13,971 nucleotides of DNA from a virus: UHGV virus genome UHGV-1842250. One strand, 5' to 3'. The notes under the pieces are model-generated. The model did not search any database. It was not told the DNA's origin and worked only from the letters and a program-made list of their open reading frames with translations. Positions 136 to 12,115 of the stretch are shown here, piece after piece. How positions within the stretch are numbered: the first letter of the stretch is position 1; each line of letters begins with the position of its first letter. Position numbers and translations under genes: made by a program.

Positions 136-150
136 TTACCTTAAAGGTAT
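136..150. promoter_or_regulatory. Operator-like site upstream of int (TTACCTTAAAGGTAT), nested in a larger inverted repeat
   Basis: Matches the window-wide TTACC-N5-GGTAA motif at 9 of 10 fixed positions. It contains the 13-bp perfect palindrome TACCTTAAAGGTA and is flanked by TGACGGTAT (129-137) / ATACCGTCA (158-166). It overlaps a candidate -10, TATACT (148-153), about 40 bp before the int start. Confidence 0.4.
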
Positions 151-192: not shown

Positions 193-1449
193 GTGCTTAC
201 CGATACAAAATTAAAAAACCTCAAGCCGCAGGACAAACTGTACAAGGTCTCCGATCGTGACGGGCTGTATGTAGCTGTGCTTACGTCAGGCACGGTCTCG
301 TTTCGCTATGACTACCGTATCAACGGTCGCCGCGAAACACTGGTAATCGGGCAGTATGGGCGTGACGGTATCAGCCTGGCAGAAGCGCGAGAAGAACTGA
401 TTGCTGCAAAGAAGCTGCTTAAAGCAGGCCAGTCGCCGGCTGCGGCTAAACGTGACGGTATCAAAAAGATTCGTGGTGCCGAGACGTTTGCGGTACATAC
501 CGACAGTTATATGAAACACGTCATCCTGGCTGACAGTACCCGCGCAATGAAGCAGGCGGTGATCGACCGTGACATACTTCCGGTTCTTGGCAACAAAATG
601 ATGGCTGAAATTACCACATCGATGGTTCGTGATTTGTGTGACCGGATTGTCGAACGCGGTGGTCGGGCAACAGCAGTACAGGCCAGGGAGATCATCAGCA
701 GCGTATACCGTCACGCCAATGACCGTGGTCATGGTTTGTTTAATCCTGCGGCTGACATTAAACCTTCGTCTATCGCCATATTTAAACCACGAGAGCGAAC
801 ACTGACACCAGAAGAAATTGGCCTGTTCTTCCGCACGCTGGATGCCATTTGTGCTATGGGCACTATGAAAATGGCTTTAAAGCTGGTGCTTATCACTATG
901 GTTCGTAAAGGCGAATTCACCAATGCAACGTGGGATGAAATAGATTTTAAAAAATGGACATGGACAATTCCTTCAGACCGCATGAAGGGAAGCCGGGCGC
1001 ACGTTATTTACCTGCCTAAACAGGCACAGGATATATTGGTTGGGTTGCAGATGTGCGCTGGTGGAAGTGAATATCTGGTTCCTGGTCGTTACAATTTCCG
1101 GAAGCCATTATCTAATGCCGCGCTGAACTCTCTGATCGACAGAACGGTGAAAATAATAAATGAAGATGGTGAGCATATTCAGGACTTCACCGTACACGAT
1201 ATGCGCCGTACAGCAAGTACGTTGTTGCATGAGGCTGGTTATCCTTCAGACTGGATTGAAAAGGCTCTGGCACATGAGCAGAAAGGTGTGCGCGCCGTAT
1301 ATAACAAAGCGGAATACGCCAGACAGCGCGCCTACATGTTGCAGCAGTGGGCCGATATGATTGATTCCTGGATTAACGGGGAGCATACGGATCTGATTCC
1401 GTTCTCCCCGTCGAAGTTTGAGAGGTGGATGGAAGACAGTAATAAATAA
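193..1449 (+). CDS. int: Tyrosine site-specific integrase, P4/IntS-like family
   Basis: 418-aa ORF with GTG start. The N-terminus (MLTDTKLKNLKP...DGLYVAV...G...RY) is typical of P4-type integrases, and the C-terminus has catalytic-region motifs (HDMRRTASTLLHEAGY ... YNKAEYARQR). Confidence 0.93.
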   Translation: MLTDTKLKNLKPQDKLYKVSDRDGLYVAVLTSGTVSFRYDYRINGRRETLVIGQYGRDGISLAEAREELIAAKKLLKAGQSPAAAKRDGIKKIRGAETFAVHTDSYMKHVILADSTRAMKQAVIDRDILPVLGNKMMAEITTSMVRDLCDRIVERGGRATAVQAREIISSVYRHANDRGHGLFNPAADIKPSSIAIFKPRERTLTPEEIGLFFRTLDAICAMGTMKMALKLVLITMVRKGEFTNATWDEIDFKKWTWTIPSDRMKGSRAHVIYLPKQAQDILVGLQMCAGGSEYLVPGRYNFRKPLSNAALNSLIDRTVKIINEDGEHIQDFTVHDMRRTASTLLHEAGYPSDWIEKALAHEQKGVRAVYNKAEYARQRAYMLQQWADMIDSWINGEHTDLIPFSPSKFERWMEDSNK

Positions 1450-3457: not shown

Positions 3458-4399
3458 TTACATAGATGTTTCGTTTAATTCTTCTCGACGAACGCTGTAA
3501 ACGTCGGTGGCTTTTGCCAGCAGTTCGTCATCATCTGAAAGTTTTTGTGCAATGTATTTGTAAGCCTTATCCAGTTCGGAGACAGTGCTGTAATTCATCG
3601 CTGCGCTGGTAAAGGCCATCAGCATTTCTTCTGGATCACGGCTATCCGATTTACGCGTTTGCTCATCAGGCTTTTTCGCTGGTTTAGCGTTGATCAGACT
3701 GTTCATTCCCGCAGCAGTGGTCGTTTGCGGAGTAATGTCTCGCTCAACGCGCGGTGCCGTTTCCTGTAATTCGTCTGGGGTGTAGACGCCCATGATTACG
3801 TCAGGACAGTGCAGGCGAGACCAGCGTTTTGTCGCAAGGTATGCGAGTTGTTGTTTCGGATCACTGGCCCAAAGTGTGGAGTTTCTTACCTGTGCTTGAG
3901 ACAGCATTAACTCAAGCACTCGAGGTTGATCCTCGCCCTTCATGGTTGCCCATACGCGAACACCGCAGCCTTCTTCGTCTTTTAGAGTCCAGCCTGGTGC
4001 GATATATGGATTGCCGTTTTTGGATGTTTTCTCAACAAACTTACCGATCACGCGTTCCCACGGCCCAAACCACTCGTAGTTGATGCGATCTTTTGTTGGC
4101 GACATCGTTGAGATAACTGCGTTTACTAATTGGGCTTCATAACCTAGCGTGCCGTTCACAACATGGGTTTTCTGAGCCACGGCAAACGGGTTCATTCCCC
4201 ACTGCGCAGCCTGCATTGCCACGGCCATGCAATCAGCTGGTTTCCCGGCGAGGTGCGCCGGTACCGTTACGCGGCTTTGCGCCATTACCTCGGCGAATTT
4301 CATCAGTTGGTTCAAGCCGTCTGGGCTGAAAATAGTTGCAGCAGTTCCAGCGATTGCTGTGTCTACTGGTGCGTTGATGTTTGCGATGTCGTTGCTCAT
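3458..4399 (-). CDS. bet: Single-strand annealing protein, RecT/Red-beta (Bet) family
   Basis: 313 aa. The segment ETAPRVERDITPQ resembles the lambda Bet region ERQPERDITPV, and the gene sits directly downstream of an exonuclease gene as in the lambda exo-bet pair. Start ATG at 4399 has AGGA upstream and overlaps the exonuclease stop (ATGA). Confidence 0.85.
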   Translation of the reverse strand: MSNDIANINAPVDTAIAGTAATIFSPDGLNQLMKFAEVMAQSRVTVPAHLAGKPADCMAVAMQAAQWGMNPFAVAQKTHVVNGTLGYEAQLVNAVISTMSPTKDRINYEWFGPWERVIGKFVEKTSKNGNPYIAPGWTLKDEEGCGVRVWATMKGEDQPRVLELMLSQAQVRNSTLWASDPKQQLAYLATKRWSRLHCPDVIMGVYTPDELQETAPRVERDITPQTTTAAGMNSLINAKPAKKPDEQTRKSDSRDPEEMLMAFTSAAMNYSTVSELDKAYKYIAQKLSDDDELLAKATDVYSVRREELNETSM

Positions 4400-4926
4400 A
4401 TGTACATATCCTGTTTGCGTGCCCACTCAGGGCGTTTAATGATTTCCACACCGCCCCATTCATCATTGATGCGGCATTCGTGATAGGTATTCAGATCCCG
4501 GCGGAACAGAGCGTGCCCGGCATCGACATCCTGCGCATCCAGCTCGAACACGCGTACCGGATACCGACCACAATCAATGCTTTCGCTCACGGCAAGAAAG
4601 AAAAAACCATGCGGCTGACCAGTAACCCTCATTGCGCCTTCGCGGTACATTGCGTCCTGCACGTGGTAGCGGAATTCCTCGATGTGGCGTGCAAAACGGT
4701 CCATATCTGCAACCTTTTTCACGTCGACGATCACGTTGTGCTCGTTCAGCCATTTGTCTGGACGAATTCGGCACAACTCACCCGTCTCTTCATCGTTCCA
4801 GTACATTGATGCTTCGCAGTAACCAGGTGCTTCCAACATCCAGCGTGCCGCCGGATGAGCCATTGCGCTATCACGCATAAGCTCCAGTTTCCGCCACTGC
4901 TCGGCATCAAGTACCGTAATCACCAT
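4396..4926 (-). CDS. PD-(D/E)xK exonuclease, C-terminal part (gene interrupted by a frameshift)
   Basis: Contains the nuclease core motifs RIRPD ... VIVDVKKV. This reading frame is open from 5130 to 4396, but its first ~55 codons overlap the N-terminal fragment's frame and look non-coding; 4926 is the first internal ATG. The partner fragment is 4937..5212. Confidence 0.7.
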   Translation of the reverse strand: MVITVLDAEQWRKLELMRDSAMAHPAARWMLEAPGYCEASMYWNDEETGELCRIRPDKWLNEHNVIVDVKKVADMDRFARHIEEFRYHVQDAMYREGAMRVTGQPHGFFFLAVSESIDCGRYPVRVFELDAQDVDAGHALFRRDLNTYHECRINDEWGGVEIIKRPEWARKQDMYI

Positions 4927-4936
4927 ATCCGCCACA

Positions 4937-5212
4937 TCACGAAGCCTCTTCGTCAGCTTTACCTTGTTTCGTCCGACGATCGAATTTCGGTGAAACAATG
5001 AAGCGTTTGTCGAACTCTCCAGGCTCCAGAAGCAGACAGTGCAATGCGGTTCCCATATCCAGTGCAGACTTTTTCTCTTCGTCTTCTGGTGCTGCCTGAA
5101 CCCATTTAAGAAGCGCCGGATTCTTGGCAACCATGTCCAGTTGCGACTTACTCACGCCGTCACCGGCGTGGTAGTCTTCGTTGCTGATGTCGAAATAAAT
5201 TCCCGGTTTCAT
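4937..5212 (-). CDS. PD-(D/E)xK exonuclease, N-terminal part (ends at a premature stop after a probable frameshift)
   Basis: 91 aa beginning MKPGIYFDISNEDYHAGDGVSKSQL ... GTALHCLLLEPGEFDKRF, which looks like the N-terminal region of phage Cas4/RecB-like exonucleases. Good SD (GAGGGA) before the ATG at 5212. The frame stops at 4937 while a second frame continues the nuclease domain. Confidence 0.7.
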   Translation of the reverse strand: MKPGIYFDISNEDYHAGDGVSKSQLDMVAKNPALLKWVQAAPEDEEKKSALDMGTALHCLLLEPGEFDKRFIVSPKFDRRTKQGKADEEAS

Positions 5213-5508
5213 GCCGCGTCCCTCTGTCCATCAAGCTGATCCGCCAGATCCCAGCGGGCGATAATTGCCATTGCCTCGCGCCGGTAGGCATCCATAAGTT
5301 CTTCGAACTCAGGGCTGTCTTTAGCTGCCTCCAGCACTTCCTGGCGAACTCCTTTGCCTGTTACAGCGTCAAAAGTTGAGGCCAGTTGATGAAGCCGGAT
5401 GCTCTCGATCAGTTCAACTTGTCGGTCATATAACTGTTCTGACAGGCGGTAGTCCTTGTCGAATGCCAGCATGATTTTTTGAAGATTTTTCTGCTGATTA
5501 ACGTTCAT
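5209..5508 (-). CDS. Hypothetical early protein, function unknown
   Basis: 99 aa from the ATG at 5508 (MNVNQQKNLQK...), which has a strong SD (GGAGG, 8-nt spacing). The stop overlaps the exonuclease ATG (ATGA). It sits where lambda carries N, but is not arginine-rich, so not N-like. Confidence 0.6.
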   Translation of the reverse strand: MNVNQQKNLQKIMLAFDKDYRLSEQLYDRQVELIESIRLHQLASTFDAVTGKGVRQEVLEAAKDSPEFEELMDAYRREAMAIIARWDLADQLDGQRDAA

Positions 5509-5510
5509 TA

Positions 5511-5663
5511 TCAGCCCTCCCATATCTCGTTATCGTTGGCTACATCGCGAGCTTCTTTGCTGACGAAAGCCCACTTAATGCCTTCCTGTAAGGTGCGGAA
5601 CTTCCAGCTCATGAATCCGCATGCAGTAACGCAGTACCAACCGTTGATGATTTTCCACTGCAT
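5511..5663 (-). CDS. 50-aa micro-ORF, first gene of the leftward operon, possibly cIII-like
   Basis: Translated by hand as MQWKIINGWYCVTACGFMSWKFRTLQEGIKWAFVSKEARDVANDNEIWEG. It lies about 27 nt downstream of the predicted leftward promoter, has GAGG upstream, and stops 2 nt before the next start. Loose resemblance to lambda CIII (MQYAIAGW..AGC ... RKLRDGWKRLI). Too short for the ORF track. Confidence 0.35.
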   Translation of the reverse strand: MQWKIINGWYCVTACGFMSWKFRTLQEGIKWAFVSKEARDVANDNEIWEG

Positions 5664-5682: not shown

Positions 5683-5697
5683 TTACCGTTGAGGTAA
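5683..5697. promoter_or_regulatory. Operator site, perfect palindrome TTACCGTTGAGGTAA, promoter-proximal in the leftward (PL-like) promoter
   Basis: Exact TTACC-N5-GGTAA. It abuts the candidate -10 of the leftward promoter, and an extra TTACC half-site sits at 5670-5674. Confidence 0.6.
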
Positions 5698-5725
5698 TAA
5701 TTATGCGTATATGGTTTGGTGTCAA
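5697..5725 (-). promoter_or_regulatory. Candidate leftward early promoter (PL analogue)
   Basis: On the minus strand: perfect -35 TTGACA (5725..5720), 17-bp spacer, -10 AATTAT (5702..5697). Flanked by operator sites at 5745-5759 and 5683-5697, the same layout as the promoter at 8778-8806. Confidence 0.5.
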
Positions 5726-5744
5726 TAGATATGAGTTAAAAAAA

Positions 5745-5759
5745 TTACCCGTTAGGTAA
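5745..5759. promoter_or_regulatory. Operator site, perfect palindrome TTACCCGTTAGGTAA, promoter-distal in the leftward promoter
   Basis: Exact TTACC-N5-GGTAA, centred 62 bp from the site at 5683-5697. Confidence 0.6.
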
Positions 5760-5772
5760 TCGAATAGGCAAT

Positions 5773-5795
5773 AAAAAAGCCGCCATAAGGCGGCT
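5773..5795 (-). terminator. Rho-independent terminator after the repressor gene
   Basis: On the minus strand, stem GCCGCC / GGCGGC with 4-nt loop followed by a U-tract (plus strand AAAAAAGCCGCCATAAGGCGGCT), about 20 bp after the repressor stop codon. Confidence 0.65.
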
Positions 5796-5816
5796 TACTT
5801 ACTGAAAAATATGATT

Positions 5817-6401
5817 TTATTGTTTGTTTTTTTCGTTCTGGTTGATGACAAATTCAATGTAACTTTCGATCTTTGCCTTCTCTGTTTCAGGTAACAATGC
5901 GTAGCGCGAGCGGTCATAGTTGATAGTTGCAGGGTCATGCGGATGAATCAGTAGTTCATATCCGTGACGCCCGAATGCAGATGCAACATTCTCCAGGGTG
6001 GAAATGGAAACGCTGACCTCATTGTTTAACAGGCGGCTTATTGTCACCTGGGCGACGCCGGATGCGCGGTGAAGTTTTCCCTGAGTTGAAAGGTCGCGGC
6101 TTTCACTCATCCAGCGTTCCAGGTTGTGAGCTGCCAGCTGACCAATGTCGCTTGGGCCGACAGGCTGAAAACCTTCCTGAGAAAGCGAGCGATCGATATC
6201 AAGCCAGTTACGGGGTTTATTGGCGGCAGCTTCAATTTTTCGCGCAACCTGGTCGCCGATAACTTTCTTGCCAAGAGCCCAGCGGTTTACCAGATTTGCC
6301 TGAGTTCCAAGTTTTTCTGCCATCCGCGTCTGAACACCATTGAATTCACGGTCGATCAAGTCGTTGAGATTTTGCCTGCGGACGTCCTGGATACTTTTCA
6401 T
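5817..6401 (-). CDS. Phage repressor (cI analogue) with two HTH domains and no recognisable LexA/S24 autocleavage domain
   Basis: 194 aa, divergent from the Cro-like gene across an operator-rich spacer. HTH-like segments QTRMAEKLGTQANLVNRW and ASGVAQVTISRLLNNEVSVSISTLENVA. No S24 peptidase serine-lysine dyad or Ala-Gly cleavage context seen. No SD before the ATG, so the transcript may be leaderless. Confidence 0.8.
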   Translation of the reverse strand: MKSIQDVRRQNLNDLIDREFNGVQTRMAEKLGTQANLVNRWALGKKVIGDQVARKIEAAANKPRNWLDIDRSLSQEGFQPVGPSDIGQLAAHNLERWMSESRDLSTQGKLHRASGVAQVTISRLLNNEVSVSISTLENVASAFGRHGYELLIHPHDPATINYDRSRYALLPETEKAKIESYIEFVINQNEKNKQ

Positions 6402-6456
6402 TTTCTGGAAAATCGCCTCATATATGAATCAGTAGATGATTCAATTTAAAGCAATA

Positions 6457-6519
6457 TTACCCAACAGGTAAATGCACCTCATAGGTAACTATCCTTGATT
6501 TTTGTTACCTTATGGGTGA
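6457..6519. promoter_or_regulatory. Immunity-region operator cluster of three sites between the repressor and cro-like genes, with divergent promoters
   Basis: Sites at 6457-6471 (TTACCCAACAGGTAA, perfect), 6474-6488 (GCACCTCATAGGTAA) and 6505-6519 (TTACCTTATGGGTGA). Candidate rightward promoter: -35 TTGATT (6494-6499) or TTGTTA (6502-6507), -10 TATTAT (6525-6530), overlapping the third site. Confidence 0.6.
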
Positions 6520-6555
6520 ATATTTATTATCTGAAATAAATATCAGGCAATAGCT

Positions 6556-6786
6556 ATGAGCGATAACGGACATTTCGATTTCAAAAAGCACTGGCTTGCA
6601 CTTACTCCGGATGAGCGTGAAGCCTTCGCACAGGAAGCCGGAACGACGAGTCACTATATCCAGACTCACTTAACAGGTAAGCGCAAAATGCCAGGTAAAG
6701 TATTGATGAATGGGCTTTTTAAAGCCTGTAAAACAAGACAATGGCTGCGCTCAAAAGCAGAACTGGCATACTTCTTCTACTCATGA
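6556..6786 (+). CDS. Cro/CII-like small HTH regulator, first rightward gene
   Basis: 76 aa at the cro position of the divergent immunity cassette, with an HTH-like segment EAFAQEAGTTSHYIQTHLTGKRK. Followed immediately by an intrinsic terminator. Confidence 0.75.
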   Translation: MSDNGHFDFKKHWLALTPDEREAFAQEAGTTSHYIQTHLTGKRKMPGKVLMNGLFKACKTRQWLRSKAELAYFFYS

Positions 6787-6807
6787 TATCCAGCTACAAC
6801 CCTCTGT

Positions 6808-6830
6808 AGACCGCCACCCGGCGGTCTTTT
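6808..6830 (+). terminator. Rho-independent terminator after the cro-like gene (tR1-like position)
   Basis: Stem AGACCGCC (6808-6815) / GGCGGTCT (6820-6827), loop ACCC, T-tract at 6827-6830. Confidence 0.6.
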
Positions 6831-6841
6831 CATATCTATTC

Positions 6842-6856
6842 GTACCTCAAAGGTAA
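6842..6856. promoter_or_regulatory. Operator-like site GTACCTCAAAGGTAA between the terminator and the replication genes
   Basis: 9 of 10 match to TTACC-N5-GGTAA, with the ACCTCA core shared with the sites at 5683, 6474 and 8806. An AT-rich stretch with weak promoter-like hexamers follows (6870-6920). Confidence 0.4.
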
Positions 6857-6934
6857 TAAAAAACCAAATATGGTTGATCAAATTTTCCAATTGTGCAAAA
6901 TAGCCAATATCAATAACAAAAAGGGGCGGAAAAA

Positions 6935-7147
6935 TTGAAGATAGTAACCAGAATGGAGGCCGCAAAAGCCGGGTTAAATCGCTATTTCACAGGAAAGCGG
7001 TGCCGTCACGGCCATCTCTCTGAAAGGTATGTTCTGAACGGAACATGTGTTGAATGTGCAATGAATAGCGCCAACCGCCATCGTAATGAATTTGCTTGTG
7101 CACTAAAGAGTGCAAGAGGGGAAACCTATGGCAAGCAGCTGGATTAA
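6935..7147 (+). CDS. Small Zn-ribbon protein (C-x3-H...C-x2-C), function unknown
   Basis: 70 aa from a TTG start at 6935, preceded by AAGGGG; the internal ATG at 6953 has no SD. Motif RCRHGHLSERYVLNGTCVEC. Its end overlaps the start of the O-like gene by 20 nt. Confidence 0.55.
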   Translation: MKIVTRMEAAKAGLNRYFTGKRCRHGHLSERYVLNGTCVECAMNSANRHRNEFACALKSARGETYGKQLD

Positions 7148-7958
7148 GGTTGAAGTTATCACTCCTGATAAACCTGAAATTTTTCAGATAGCAGAAATTC
7201 TGGGTATTGATCCAGATGCTGTTCTTGGAAAGCTGGTTCGTATATGGGCATGGGCTGACCAGCAAACAATAGACGGTAACGCTGGCAGCGTTACAAAAGG
7301 AGTACTTGATAGACTCGCTTTTATTACAGGATTTGCTGACGCCCTCATTAGCGTCGGATGGCTTGCTTATCATGACGGCAAACTAATTCTTCCAAACTTT
7401 GAGCGACATAATGGAGAATCATCGAAAAAACGTGCACTTACGAATAGAAGAGTGGCAGAGCATCGAAAACGAGTAACGCAAAAAGTAACGCCAACAGCGT
7501 TACAAAAGGAGTTACCAGAGGAAGAGGAAGAGGAAGATATATATAAAACCCCACACATAGCGCACGTGCGCGAGGGTGCTCCGACCAGTGAAGCGAACGG
7601 TATGCCGTTGCAGGTGGCTGAACCTGAATTTCTGGATGGCCTGAGTGAACCCATCGGGAAATTTCCGATGACCGATGGCTGGCATCCGTCGCCGGATTTT
7701 CGACGGCGTGCTGCGCTGTGGGGAACGGCCCTGCCGGAACCGGAATTTACACCTGCTGAACTTGCTGCATTCCGGGATTACTGGATGGCTGAGGGCAAAG
7801 TGTTCACGCAGGTTCAGTGGGAACAAAAATTCGCCAGGCACGTAAATCATATCAGGGGAAAATCAAAAAACGCCGGGAAAAGCGATGAGCTTGACTGGAA
7901 TAACACTGACTGGATAGAAGGGGTGTGGGATGAAATCAACTCCAGAACTTCTCAATGA
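7128..7958 (+). CDS. Replication initiator (lambda O analogue) with DnaT-like C-terminal domain
   Basis: ATG at 7128 preceded by SD GAGGGG. C-terminal motif PSPDFRRRAALWG...PEPEFTPAELAAFRDYWMAEGKVFTQVQWEQKFARHV resembles the DnaT/primosomal C-terminal domain. Iteron-like repeats and an AT-rich patch lie inside the gene, and the lambda-P-like gene follows directly. Confidence 0.8.
   Translation: MASSWIKVEVITPDKPEIFQIAEILGIDPDAVLGKLVRIWAWADQQTIDGNAGSVTKGVLDRLAFITGFADALISVGWLAYHDGKLILPNFERHNGESSKKRALTNRRVAEHRKRVTQKVTPTALQKELPEEEEEEDIYKTPHIAHVREGAPTSEANGMPLQVAEPEFLDGLSEPIGKFPMTDGWHPSPDFRRRAALWGTALPEPEFTPAELAAFRDYWMAEGKVFTQVQWEQKFARHVNHIRGKSKNAGKSDELDWNNTDWIEGVWDEINSRTSQ
7276..7548. repeat. Candidate replication origin inside the O-like gene: iterons, 18-bp exact direct repeat, (GAGGAA)x3 and AT-rich patch
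   Basis: GTAACGC at 7276, 7473 and 7485; its inverse GCGTTAC at 7288 and 7497 (12-bp periodicity in the second cluster). CAGCGTTACAAAAGGAGT is repeated exactly at 7286-7303 and 7495-7512 and is read in different codon frames (AGSVTKGV vs PTALQKEL). CATCGAAAA(A)ACG at 7420 and 7461, GAGGAA x3 at 7518-7535, GATATATATAAAA at 7536-7548. Confidence 0.6.
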
Positions 7959-8706
7959 GTACGATCGCTTACGTGAGCATGGTGTTGCTGTGCATGAAGA
8001 GCGGCGTGACAGCAATGGCAAAAAGGAGCAGGTTGCTAGAATTTTCAATGAACTATTTGTCCAGTTACAGGCTGCATTTCCTGCAAGCGTTTCGACCATA
8101 AGGGAGCAGAACAAACTTAATGAATTCCGTAAGCAATGGATGCTTGCGTTTCTGGAGAATGGGATCACAACAATGGAACAGGTTAACGCTGGTATGCGCC
8201 ACGCCCGCGCCAGTGAATCTCCGTTCTGGCCGTCGCCTGGGCAATTCATCAAGTGGTGCAAAGACAGCAAGATGGTTCTTGGCGTCACCATTGACGATGT
8301 GATGGCGGAGTTTCACCGGTACAGCAAGGAAAAAAGTTTATATCCTGGTGGTCCCGAAAGATTCCCGTGGCGACATCCGGTTATGTACTGGGTCGTATGT
8401 GATACCCGCCGTGCAATGTATCAGCGCCAGCTTAGCGAGATTGAGGTTGAGAAACACGCGCGCAGGCTGCTCGATGATTGGGCGAAAAAGGTGGCTTCCG
8501 GACAGCAGATACCCGATCCGGTGATCAGCATACAGGCAAAGCCAGAACCCATGAGTACACCTCCGGACACAGGGAGAGACGTTTACCATCCACCAGGGCG
8601 AAGTTTCGGGTGTATGCCTAACGCCGCCACCCTGGGGGGAATAACACCGGCGCAGTGGCTGATGGAGGAATACAGGCGGGGAAAGGCGGCAGGATTTATC
8701 AAGTAA
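7930..8706 (+). CDS. P: Replication protein P-like DnaB helicase loader
   Basis: Strong resemblance to lambda P over the block VARIFNELFVQLQAAFPAS...FRKQWMLAFLENGITTMEQVNAGMRHAR...PFWPSPGQFIKWC (lambda P has ...ATFPAS...RRQWVLAFRENGITTMEQVNAGMRVAR...PFLPSPGQFVAWC). Start overlaps the end of the O-like gene. Confidence 0.93.
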   Translation: MKSTPELLNEYDRLREHGVAVHEERRDSNGKKEQVARIFNELFVQLQAAFPASVSTIREQNKLNEFRKQWMLAFLENGITTMEQVNAGMRHARASESPFWPSPGQFIKWCKDSKMVLGVTIDDVMAEFHRYSKEKSLYPGGPERFPWRHPVMYWVVCDTRRAMYQRQLSEIEVEKHARRLLDDWAKKVASGQQIPDPVISIQAKPEPMSTPPDTGRDVYHPPGRSFGCMPNAATLGGITPAQWLMEEYRRGKAAGFIK

Positions 8707-8712
8707 TACCAG

Positions 8713-8730
8713 CGCGATAGCGCATTTTTT
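8713..8730 (+). terminator. Weak candidate intrinsic terminator after the P-like gene
   Basis: 4-bp GC stem (GCGC / GCGC) with GATA loop followed by seven T residues. The stem is short, so this is low confidence. Confidence 0.3.
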
Positions 8731-8743
8731 TACGTCTTGATAA

Positions 8744-8758
8744 TTACCTGCTAGGTAA
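8744..8758. promoter_or_regulatory. Operator site, perfect palindrome TTACCTGCTAGGTAA, promoter-distal in the promoter for the accessory block
   Basis: Exact TTACC-N5-GGTAA, centred 62 bp from the site at 8806-8820, the same spacing as the pair at the leftward promoter. Confidence 0.6.
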
Positions 8759-8777
8759 TAAAATGTTCTAAGATCTA

Positions 8778-8806
8778 TTGATTTCGTGTCTTATGTGGTT
8801 TTTAAT
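8778..8806 (+). promoter_or_regulatory. Candidate sigma70 promoter for the accessory block, duplicated PL-type architecture
   Basis: -35 TTGATT (8778-8783), 17-bp spacer, -10 TTTAAT (8801-8806). The flanking sequence CTATTGA and the operator spacing match the leftward promoter at 5697-5725. Confidence 0.55.
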
Positions 8807-8820
8807 TACCTCAGGGGTAA
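8806..8820. promoter_or_regulatory. Operator site, perfect palindrome TTACCTCAGGGGTAA, overlapping the -10, start region and SD of the gene at 8824
   Basis: Exact TTACC-N5-GGTAA. Its GGGG also serves as the ribosome-binding site for the ATG at 8824. Confidence 0.6.
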
Positions 8821-8823
8821 ATC

Positions 8824-9168
8824 ATGAGAAAACAGATACAGGCTCTTGGTCGACTCAAAACAGGCCAGATGAACAAAACAGAATCTGCGTATTGCCAGCA
8901 CCTTGAGCAGCGTAAACGTGCAGGGGAAATCGCCTGGTATCGATTCGAGGGTATCAAGTTGCGGTTAGCTGACAACACGTTCTATACGCCCGATTTTGCT
9001 GTGATGCTCGCCACCGGCGAGATGGAACTGCACGAAGTGAAAGGTTTCTGGACCGACGACGCCAGGGTGAAAACCAAAGTCGCCGCAGATCAGTATCCGT
9101 TCCGAATCATCGGGGTAACGGTTAAGCCAAAGAAAGCAGGTGGTGGCTGGAACATCGAAGAGTTCTGA
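8824..9168 (+). CDS. DUF1064-like phage protein with PD-(D/E)xK-like nuclease motifs
   Basis: 114 aa with YTPDF ... HEVKG, consistent with a D ... ExK nuclease core. Family name is from memory. Confidence 0.7.
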   Translation: MRKQIQALGRLKTGQMNKTESAYCQHLEQRKRAGEIAWYRFEGIKLRLADNTFYTPDFAVMLATGEMELHEVKGFWTDDARVKTKVAADQYPFRIIGVTVKPKKAGGGWNIEEF

Positions 9169-12045: not shown

Positions 12046-12071
12046 GCCGCCAACTATGGCGGCTTTATTTT
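12046..12071 (+). terminator. Strong rho-independent terminator between the early/accessory genes and the terminase genes
   Basis: 7-bp GC-rich stem GCCGCCA (12046-12052) / TGGCGGC (12057-12063), 4-nt loop ACTA, then TTTATTTT. Confidence 0.7.
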
Positions 12072-12082
12072 GCATGGTACTA

Positions 12083-12115
12083 TTACCACAACGGTAACTA
12101 TTACCACGGTGGTTA
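12083..12115. promoter_or_regulatory. Tandem operator-like sites immediately upstream of the terminase small-subunit gene
   Basis: Perfect TTACCACAACGGTAA (12083-12097) followed 18 bp later by TTACCACGGTGGTTA (12101-12115). Half-sites chain as GGTA-cta-TTACC-N5-GGTAA-cta-TTACC-N5-GGTTA, echoing GGTAACTATCC at 6485-6495. No convincing sigma70 -35/-10 pair nearby. Confidence 0.5.

Follow-up and report, generated by a model that had tools for sequence, protein, structure and literature searches.

The window analyzed here is a stretch of 13,971 nucleotides from the virus genome UHGV-1842250. Two promoter-operator modules of 77 bp stand out in it, one on the minus strand (5759..5683, the left module) and one on the plus strand (8744..8820, the right module), and the subject of this study is their shared design and their predicted control by Rep, the repressor encoded nearby. 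Between positions 5400 and 9200 the window is 98.2% identical over the full length to Escherichia phage vB_EcoP_ZX5 (hereafter ZX5) and 97–98% identical to TL-2011b and HEMP4 and, over two thirds of this length, to phiV10. Its sequence identifies the window as the early part of a prophage of the genus Uetakevirus (epsilon15/phiV10-like podoviruses). Of 5,426 complete E. coli genomes, 783 contain a match to the early region, 113 of them matching at least 80% of the query. Salmonella, Klebsiella, Enterobacter and Citrobacter yield relatives too. The O-antigen is altered by several phages of this kind.

The features on which the analysis rests are collected in Table 1; gene calls were made with Pfam, PHROGs and the annotations of phiV10 and ZX5. 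A search of the window against Rfam for structured RNA returned no match.

Table 1. Coordinates of genes, operators, promoter elements and terminators in the window
Feature	Position	Strand	Remarks
Single operator, ATTACCTTAAAGGTAT	136..150		1 mismatch; overlaps TATACT, a -10-like hexamer; 43 bp upstream of integrase start
Integrase	193-1449	+	Pfam, PHROGs, annotation
AlpA, PerC and MT-A70 family genes			further left, beyond RecT
Leftward early operon, start	3458..5663	-	Pfam, PHROGs, phiV10 and ZX5 annotation
RecT	3458-4426	-
PD-(D/E)XK exonuclease	4396-5130	-
Two small open reading frames of the leftward operon	5511-5663, 5209-5523	-
Left proximal operator, TTACCTCAACGGTAA on the minus strand	5683..5697		covers the predicted transcription start; conserved
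Left -10 hexamer, AATTAT	5697..5702	-	17-bp spacer; 10/12 match
Left -35 element, CTATTGACA	5720..5728	-	hexamer TTGACA (5725..5720), preceded by a conserved CTA
Left distal operator, TTACCCGTTAGGTAA	5745..5759		exact motif match; centre at about -62 of the leftward promoter
Intrinsic terminator of rep, strong	5777..5796	-	8-bp stem, 6 GC pairs, T-run; -21.1 kcal/mol, z = -6.0
Repressor Rep, 194 amino acids	5817..6401	-
Three operators between rep and the cro-like gene	6457..6519		6457-6471 exact; 6474-6488, 2 mismatches; 6505-6519, 1 mismatch
Cro-like small helix-turn-helix (HTH) protein	6556..6786	+	phrog_35, transcriptional repressor, E=5.6e-13
Terminator after the cro-like gene	6808..6827	+	also annotated in phiV10
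Third, partial cassette	6842..6902	+	precedes the 70-amino-acid, DnaT-like and lambda-P-like genes
70-amino-acid gene, DnaT-like gene, lambda-P-like gene	6935-8706
Terminator-like hairpin after the P gene, weak	8712..8731	+	GCGC-GATA-GCGC, then T7
Right distal operator, TTACCTGCTAGGTAA	8744..8758		epsilon15 counterpart annotated 'protein_bind repressor'
Right -35-like element, CTATTGATT	8775..8783	+	TTGATT (8778-8783); conserved
Right -10-like element, TTTAAT	8801..8806	+	17-bp spacer; weak (T at position 2); read from sequence
Right proximal operator, TTACCTCAGGGGTAA	8806..8820		contains the Shine-Dalgarno sequence of the next gene
DUF1064 gene, first of the right-hand block	8824..9168	+	Pfam PF06356; phrog_190, E=6e-43
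Ead/Ea22-type and other small genes			after the DUF1064 gene
Two tandem operators, 18 bp apart	12083..12115		starts 12083 and 12101; between a hairpin and the terminase small-subunit start
Terminase small subunit	start 12118

Layout of the two modules and the operons behind them

The two modules align without a gap, in the positions and orientations proposed in a first-pass annotation of the DNA, with 47 of 77 positions identical. Both are built in the same order, namely operator, 16 bp, CTATTGA, 17 bp, a 7-bp AT-rich block and a second operator (15+16+7+17+7+15 = 77). The first of these intervals, from the 15-bp distal operator to CTATTGA, had been given as 17 bp and measures 16 bp. The common layout itself is as had been described, and so are the distance between operators, which is 62 bp in both modules (starts at 5683 and 5745 on the left, at 8744 and 8806 on the right), and the opening of both proximal operators with TTACCTCA. 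The composite pattern TTACC-N5-GGTAA / N16 / CTATTGA / N24 / TTACC-N5-GGTAA has exactly two matches in the window, and 200 dinucleotide-preserving shuffles gave none, even when two mismatches are allowed. The operator motif alone, with up to two mismatches, is matched 20 times in the window, against an expectation of 3.9.

The left module is well supported as a predicted sigma-70 promoter for the exonuclease/RecT operon (TTGACA-17-AATTAT, 10/12). The quality of this match and the identity of the genes behind it bear out the earlier view that a leftward promoter drives the recombination operon. The terminator of rep lies directly upstream of the module and is kept in the consensus of left modules, of which (A/G)ATTAT is the conserved -10 form. 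In the window, the last T of the -10 hexamer is also the first base of the proximal operator, which would span roughly -7 to +8 relative to the predicted start. The position of the distal operator is kept in all relatives, and its counterpart in epsilon15 is annotated 'protein_bind repressor'.

The right module follows the lambda-P-like gene and its hairpin, which is conserved as ..AGCGCaTTTTTTT in 82 distinct right modules and appears as 'putative terminator' in the phiV10 annotation. Many relatives carry, one base further on than the TTTAAT of the window, the sequence TAAATT at a spacer of 18 bp, a better -10 candidate in that its positions 2 and 6 are A and T. The ATG of the next gene lies 3 nt past the proximal operator, in a conserved GGTAAAtcATG. 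At the other end of the module, the sequence (T/C)AAAAT(A/G)T just past the distal operator (8759-8764 in the window) is conserved genus-wide; the left distal operator is followed by TTTTTT, and A/T tracts are found on the loop-facing side of several other operators. Bending, an UP-like element and extended operator contacts are candidate roles for these tracts.

The block behind the right module had been regarded as accessory, a term that does not suit its first gene. The PHROGs family matched by the DUF1064 product is annotated as Holliday junction resolvase, and in epsilon15 and Tyrion the same slot, directly behind the proximal operator, holds a gene annotated as RuvC-like crossover junction endonuclease. 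Since a gene of a resolvase family leads it, the right block is functionally tied to the left recombination operon. Each of the two promoters of like construction thus appears to serve one half of a recombination pathway, the left one exonuclease and annealase, the right one the junction resolvase. As a separate observation, the slot is filled by a DUF1064 or a RuvC-like gene depending on the phage (8824-9168 in the window, 13988-14452 in L002, 3116-3580 in L005), and the swap looks like non-homologous replacement in one slot.

Conservation and natural spacing variants

Conservation was assessed in eight phage genomes and in six prophages of species-representative genomes, the prophages being chosen by homology of the Rep protein alone; together these yielded 28 modules. 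The phages with modules include phiV10, ZX5, epsilon15, SPC32H, the Enterobacter phages Tyrion and BUCT554 and the Klebsiella phage BUCT711; the prophages are those of Superficieibacter, Erwinia dacicola, Klebsiella pneumoniae, Citrobacter werkmanii, Citrobacter braakii and Scandinavium. Both positions are occupied in all of them, one module lying just left of the rep terminator and the other just after the replication genes. The operators are 62 bp apart in 24 of the 28 modules, the remainder being two Klebsiella left modules with 63 bp and two Scandinavium modules with 61 bp. Although modules were picked without requiring it, CTATTGA is present in 27 of 28. In this set the identity of Rep to the window protein falls to 41–45%, and the sequence between the elements diverges. 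Reps at this level of identity keep the TTACC/GGTAA half-sites and differ in the central 5 bp of the operator: these are mixed in the phiV10 type, whereas the types of epsilon15, SPC32H, Klebsiella and Citrobacter have A/T-rich centres.

A variable-gap scan of IMG/VR recovered the exact module in at least 120 contigs. The distal gap is 15 bp in four contigs and 17 or 18 bp, nearly always 17, in 88 stretches, and no contig in these gap scans had a distance from CTATTGA to the proximal operator shorter than that of the module. Spacings of 61, 63, 64 and 75 bp between operators exist as natural variants, nearly all modules falling within 61–64 bp.

The 75-bp form belongs to a lineage of 22 IMG/VR contigs (L140-L161; positions 9480-9569 in L142) whose Rep is 52% identical to that of the window. 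In these contigs the left proximal operator has moved by +13 bp, and a TTACC half-site is kept at the canonical proximal position. At the post-replication position, the same lineage has TTGCAA and two tandem operators 18 bp apart, placed before its DUF1064 gene. The presence of a differently built Rep-operator promoter at this site argues that a Rep-gated promoter there is a general feature; as read from these contigs, the 62-bp design is one solution at the post-replication position, the commonest in our sample. Operator spacings at large fall at 17/18, 30/31, 47/48, 61-64, 75/76, 81, 86 and 105-107 bp, with no clean 10.5-bp ladder among loci that had been retrieved with spacing-biased patterns.

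Rep and the predicted closure of the modules

The Rep protein of the window aligns over residues 1-190 with the Rep of SPC32H (PDB 5D50; phmmer E=4e-42). Its architecture comprises an N-terminal HTH, a middle HTH-like (dimerization) domain and a C-terminal tetramerization helix; Pfam finds HTH families only (HTH_3) in it, and no S24 peptidase domain. An alignment of six Reps has a mean column identity of 68%. All six have the motif NLVNRW unchanged in the N-terminal HTH, which matches the invariance of the TTACC half-site, and the linker (residues ~70-90) is the most variable and indel-rich part. Residues F187 and F190, which lie at the tetramer interface of SPC32H Rep (PMC9986798), correspond in the alignment to Y181 and F184 of the window protein. 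All six sequences have F at the second of these positions and either Y or F at the first.

The Rep of SPC32H is reported to undergo a dimer-tetramer switch and to bind DNA as a tetramer, only weakly as a dimer; the DNA-binding pairs form in trans, from subunits of different dimers; and one tetramer is enough for repression, which the tetrameric antirepressor Ant relieves by splitting Rep (PMC9638917). The C-terminal domain resembles the looping tetramerization domain of Rco and p53, and two middle-domain pairs lie ~100 Å apart, but the structural mechanism of repression has not been extensively characterized (PMC9986798). The sites themselves also have a precedent: the GenBank record of epsilon15 places 'protein_bind, repressor' at seven sites, namely both operators of the left module, a third left site, the distal operator of the right module, which is the only site annotated in that module, and sites ahead of the genes for terminase, portal and tailspike. 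At positions annotated as repressor-binding in that record, the window has operators with the palindrome ATTACC-N5-GGTAAT. The ZX5 paper predicts promoters and maps no operators (PMC9782041).

Module layout, its statistics, its conservation and the Rep homology were computed here, and the tetramer state and the antirepressor mechanism are taken from the literature; what we infer is where transcription starts, that Rep binds the sites in question and that one tetramer bridges them. On balance we favor the view that both modules are sigma-70 promoters gated by Rep, with operators at about -62 and about +1 that are probably bridged by one Rep tetramer. Control of both promoters by Rep is very likely. 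Bridging of the operator pair by the tetramer is a closer call, with the balance tipping slightly in its favor. One-tetramer bridging is the most likely arrangement because the Rep tetramer has two DNA-binding heads, and the spacing of 62 bp, about six helical turns as had been pointed out, does fit a repressor described as a DNA-binding tetramer (PMC9638917, PMC9986798). The further proposal that two dimers would sit on one face of the DNA may claim too much; variants with 61, 63, 64 and 75 bp exist.

One could envision the following course of events. In the lysogen, Rep would keep both early promoters shut. A tetramer with its two DNA-binding heads would hold both operators of one module, and the ~47 bp between them, with the -35 and -10 elements, would be clamped or looped to the exclusion of RNA polymerase. 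SOS induction would lift LexA from Ant, Ant would dismantle Rep, and all the Rep-gated promoters would open together, the left one onto the exonuclease/RecT operon and the right one onto the operon led by the junction resolvase. Of the two kinds of site, the distal ones are the better match to the full 17-bp palindrome with its A...T flanks; proximal sites have C or A as their 3' flank. This would fit a strong anchor site that helps to fill a weaker, promoter-proximal one.

Several points weigh against this scheme. As straight DNA, 62 bp measure ~210 Å, about twice the head separation of ~100 Å reported for SPC32H, so that bridging needs either strong bending or long flexible linkers. The conserved spacing could also be explained, with no bridging, if each operator were separately fixed relative to the promoter, and the frequency of 63 bp together with the 75-bp lineage would make strict helical phasing dispensable. 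On the right, the -10 element is poor: a promoter scan made no call at TTTAAT and called instead TTGATA-16-TAAAAT (8737-8764), across the distal operator. Finally, as the only barrier ahead of the right module is a hairpin with a 4-bp GC stem followed by T7, read-through is plausible, and the right operon may be fed largely in this way. Two candidates could be discarded in the course of the analysis. The TTGATA-16-TAAAAT promoter is taken to be a chance match particular to the window, its -35 varying in relatives (TCAATA, TCGATA, CAGTGA and others); and a site for integration host factor (IHF) within the modules was rejected, the reverse of CTATTGA, (A/G)TCAATAG, giving by eye a partial and inconsistent match to the IHF core.

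The alternative that survives best, unlikely as we take it to be, is that both modules are controlled by Rep with the two operators of each acting independently. The proximal site alone would block RNA polymerase, the distal site would act as a roadblock after a terminator (for instance against rep read-through) or by occluding an UP element or the C-terminal domain of the polymerase α subunit, and the distance of 62 bp would arise since each site is fixed relative to the promoter. It is in favor of this model that every distal-type operator lies a few bases past a terminator (those of rep and cro, that after the P gene and that before terS), that a cassette at 6842, described below, has a distal operator and no intact proximal one in the window, and that spacings of 61-64 and 75 bp are tolerated. 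However, efficient DNA binding by Rep is reported to require the tetramer, with its two DNA-binding pairs (PMC9638917), which makes isolated single sites poor targets and favors paired ones; rightward transcription ahead of the right module is already off in the lysogen, where a roadblock would be of little use; and a site at -62 would not be expected to block polymerase by itself.

A second alternative, which we consider improbable, denies the right module an autonomous promoter. Genes from 8824 onward would be read from upstream, the operators would serve as a Rep roadblock, and CTATTGA would be kept on other grounds. The absence of A at position 2 of the -10 element, the silence of the scan and the upstream hairpin with its four GC pairs all agree with this possibility, as does the leader of only ~11-12 nt that a start at the right promoter would leave. 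Yet CTATTGA lies at the exact offset that it has in the left module, which is necessarily a promoter as it has only the rep terminator upstream; an AT-rich -10-like block is found at the same offset in all relatives, in many of them as TAAATT; and another lineage has, at the same place, the unrelated Rep-operator layout with TTGCAA and two tandem sites. Rep-gated promoters in both modules remain the reading that we prefer, with one qualification. It had been suggested that the two sets of genes would be switched with the same kinetics, and this is an overstatement: given the -10 element just discussed, the TTGATT at -35 and the weak hairpin upstream, the two promoters probably answer to a common trigger but differ in strength or timing.

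The modules had also been described as duplicated, which is misleading. Over the 40 positions outside the operators and CTATTGA, the left and right modules of the same genome have a mean identity of 0.44 and those of different genomes 0.41, barely above the shuffled control (0.30 ± 0.07), whereas left modules compared between genomes reach 0.67 and right modules 0.74. The near equality of the values within and between genomes rules out recent duplication of, or gene conversion between, the two modules, which would be either old paralogues or the outcome of convergence on one design, their geometry being held by selection. That the resemblance stems from a recent segmental duplication or from chance, with the geometry unconstrained, is hardly credible: both copies do share the 9-nt string ATCTATTGA and identical element spacing, but no chance matches are expected for the composite pattern, identity outside the elements is near the shuffled level and not higher within a genome, and the geometry is kept in phages whose Rep is only ~42% identical. 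What stands of the first-pass proposal is therefore the existence of repressor-controlled promoters of one design, upheld by layout and conservation, and not its account of their origin, of their timing or of the genes on the right.

Further operators and relation to known systems

Operators are not confined to the two modules. The three found between rep and the cro-like gene have starts separated by 17 and 31 bp, and relatives show the same arrangement of 17 and 30/31 bp. Beyond the terminator of the cro-like gene, a third cassette displays in order the operator GTACCTCAAAGGTAA (6842-6856), 17 nt, TTGATC (6874-6879), 17 nt and TGc-AAAATA (6897-6902). In the window the position of its proximal operator is degenerate, with no intact site; in BUCT554 an operator with one mismatch is found there. 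The layout of this cassette is conserved in phiV10, Tyrion, BUCT711, L129, epsilon15 and SPC32H. A leftward promoter at 6842-6881 was considered and rejected: the palindromic TTGATCAA would leave it a spacer of ~14 bp, and the rightward reading is the conserved one. The segment 6843-6870, flanking the 6842 operator, is 82% complementary to the -10 element and proximal operator of the right module. The early region would thus be a series of terminator-operator-promoter cassettes and not the product of a single duplication; its two early operons, and probably the replication operon too, share one promoter-operator design.

Sites also occur near genes outside the early operons. The tandem pair before the terminase gene is preceded by a terminator-like hairpin (~12046-12062, by eye), and its second operator, starting at 12101, overlaps the ribosome-binding site of the terminase small subunit. 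A homologous pair, one site of which is annotated, precedes the terminase gene of epsilon15. No good sigma-70 promoter is evident between 12046 and 12120, and the arrangement suggests direct control of the late/packaging operon by Rep. At the left end of the window, the operator that overlaps a -10-like hexamer ahead of the integrase gene is conserved in phiV10, ZX5 and epsilon15, and int may be under direct Rep control as well. In the complete genome of ZX5, reassembled from pieces and scored at one mismatch or less, all 14 of 14 operator sites fall inside the 8.6% of the DNA that carries no coding annotation. In this phage, in a part of the genome outside the window, the antirepressor gene stands behind a perfect LexA box, CTGTATAAATATACAG (2368-2383), in the order small gene, ash, antirepressor. 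Operators are located at 2423, upstream of the LexA box, and at 2043, in the interval separating the small gene from ash; the antirepressor operon may be under dual control by LexA and Rep.

These properties make the system a member of the known Uetakevirus Rep/Ant immunity, to which the present analysis adds refinements and not a new kind of regulation. Like epsilon15 and SPC32H, the window has a full-length Rep homologue, TTACC-N5-GGTAA operators in the same positions and pairs at 62 bp, and its nearest complete relative, ZX5, has an antirepressor operon with a LexA box. Unlike them, it has operators whose central 5 bp are mixed and not A/T-rich, its Rep is only ~42% identical to theirs, and it has no counterpart of their third left operator, 76 bp downstream of the left proximal site. 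The public annotation of epsilon15 already contains the operator motif and most of the site positions. In that annotation and in the later papers that summarize Rep, we found no mention of the exact geometry common to both modules, of how it is conserved throughout the genus, of the right proximal operator, which is unannotated, or of the third cassette.

Analogies with phage lambda are also apparent, notably the divergent early promoters around the repressor gene, the three operators between repressor and cro and the leftward recombination genes. In lambda, adjacent operators spaced at 20-24 bp overlap the promoter, CI acting through pairwise cooperation and a 2.3-kb loop between OL and OR, and CI is inactivated by RecA-stimulated self-cleavage. 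In contrast, the promoters described here are bracketed at -62 and +1, Rep lacks an S24 domain, and terminators elsewhere along the genome precede further promoters that Rep would gate; the two modules and their repressor show neither the adjacent operators overlapping PL and PR nor the S24 self-cleavage domain typical of lambda-type CI/Cro systems. Tetramers that engage two operators at a promoter are known from LacI (O1-O3, 92 bp), GalR (OE-OI, 113 bp), Rco of pLS20 (75 bp), PrgX and Stl of SaPI1. Loops of the LacI, GalR and Rco type are longer than the 62 bp found here, where looping by Rep is a proposal.

Phages P1 and L5 offer a different parallel. The P1 repressor C1 and gp71 of mycobacteriophage L5 have many sites genome-wide, and the L5 stoperators are orientation-dependent roadblocks inside operons. 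As in these phages, one repressor would serve many units, late genes included (14 sites in ZX5, seven annotated in epsilon15); unlike theirs, the sites are palindromic, strictly intergenic, far fewer than in L5 and arranged in fixed promoter pairs.

It is tempting to carry the idea further, if only tentatively, since the wider version may well prove wrong. One Rep tetramer would clamp each early promoter through its fixed 62-bp pair, and the whole genome would consist of terminator-insulated, Rep-gated cassettes, opened directly by a single antirepressor event with no antitermination cascade of the lambda kind. The proposed string of cassettes runs through integrase, left operon, PR, replication operon, resolvase operon, terminase, portal, tail fibre and antirepressor. 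If the proposal is true, the 62-bp Rep clamp would rank among the shortest natural repression bridges or loops. The shared design itself provides a concrete model of how a non-cleavable tetrameric repressor could silence a phage and a single antirepressor release it. With its clear landmarks and its natural variants of 61, 63, 64 and 75 bp, the 77-bp module would lend itself well to studies of short-range DNA bridging, and it is a candidate for a tightly repressed promoter cassette in engineering.

A last observation concerns the DnaT-like gene, which lies between the third cassette and the right module. It holds a 28-nt direct repeat (7276-7303 and 7485-7512), the copies of which are 89% identical and 209 bp apart, each with the 19-nt palindrome GTAACGC-N5-GCGTTAC. 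By analogy with the lambda ori inside gene O, these could be origin-type repeats within an initiator gene.

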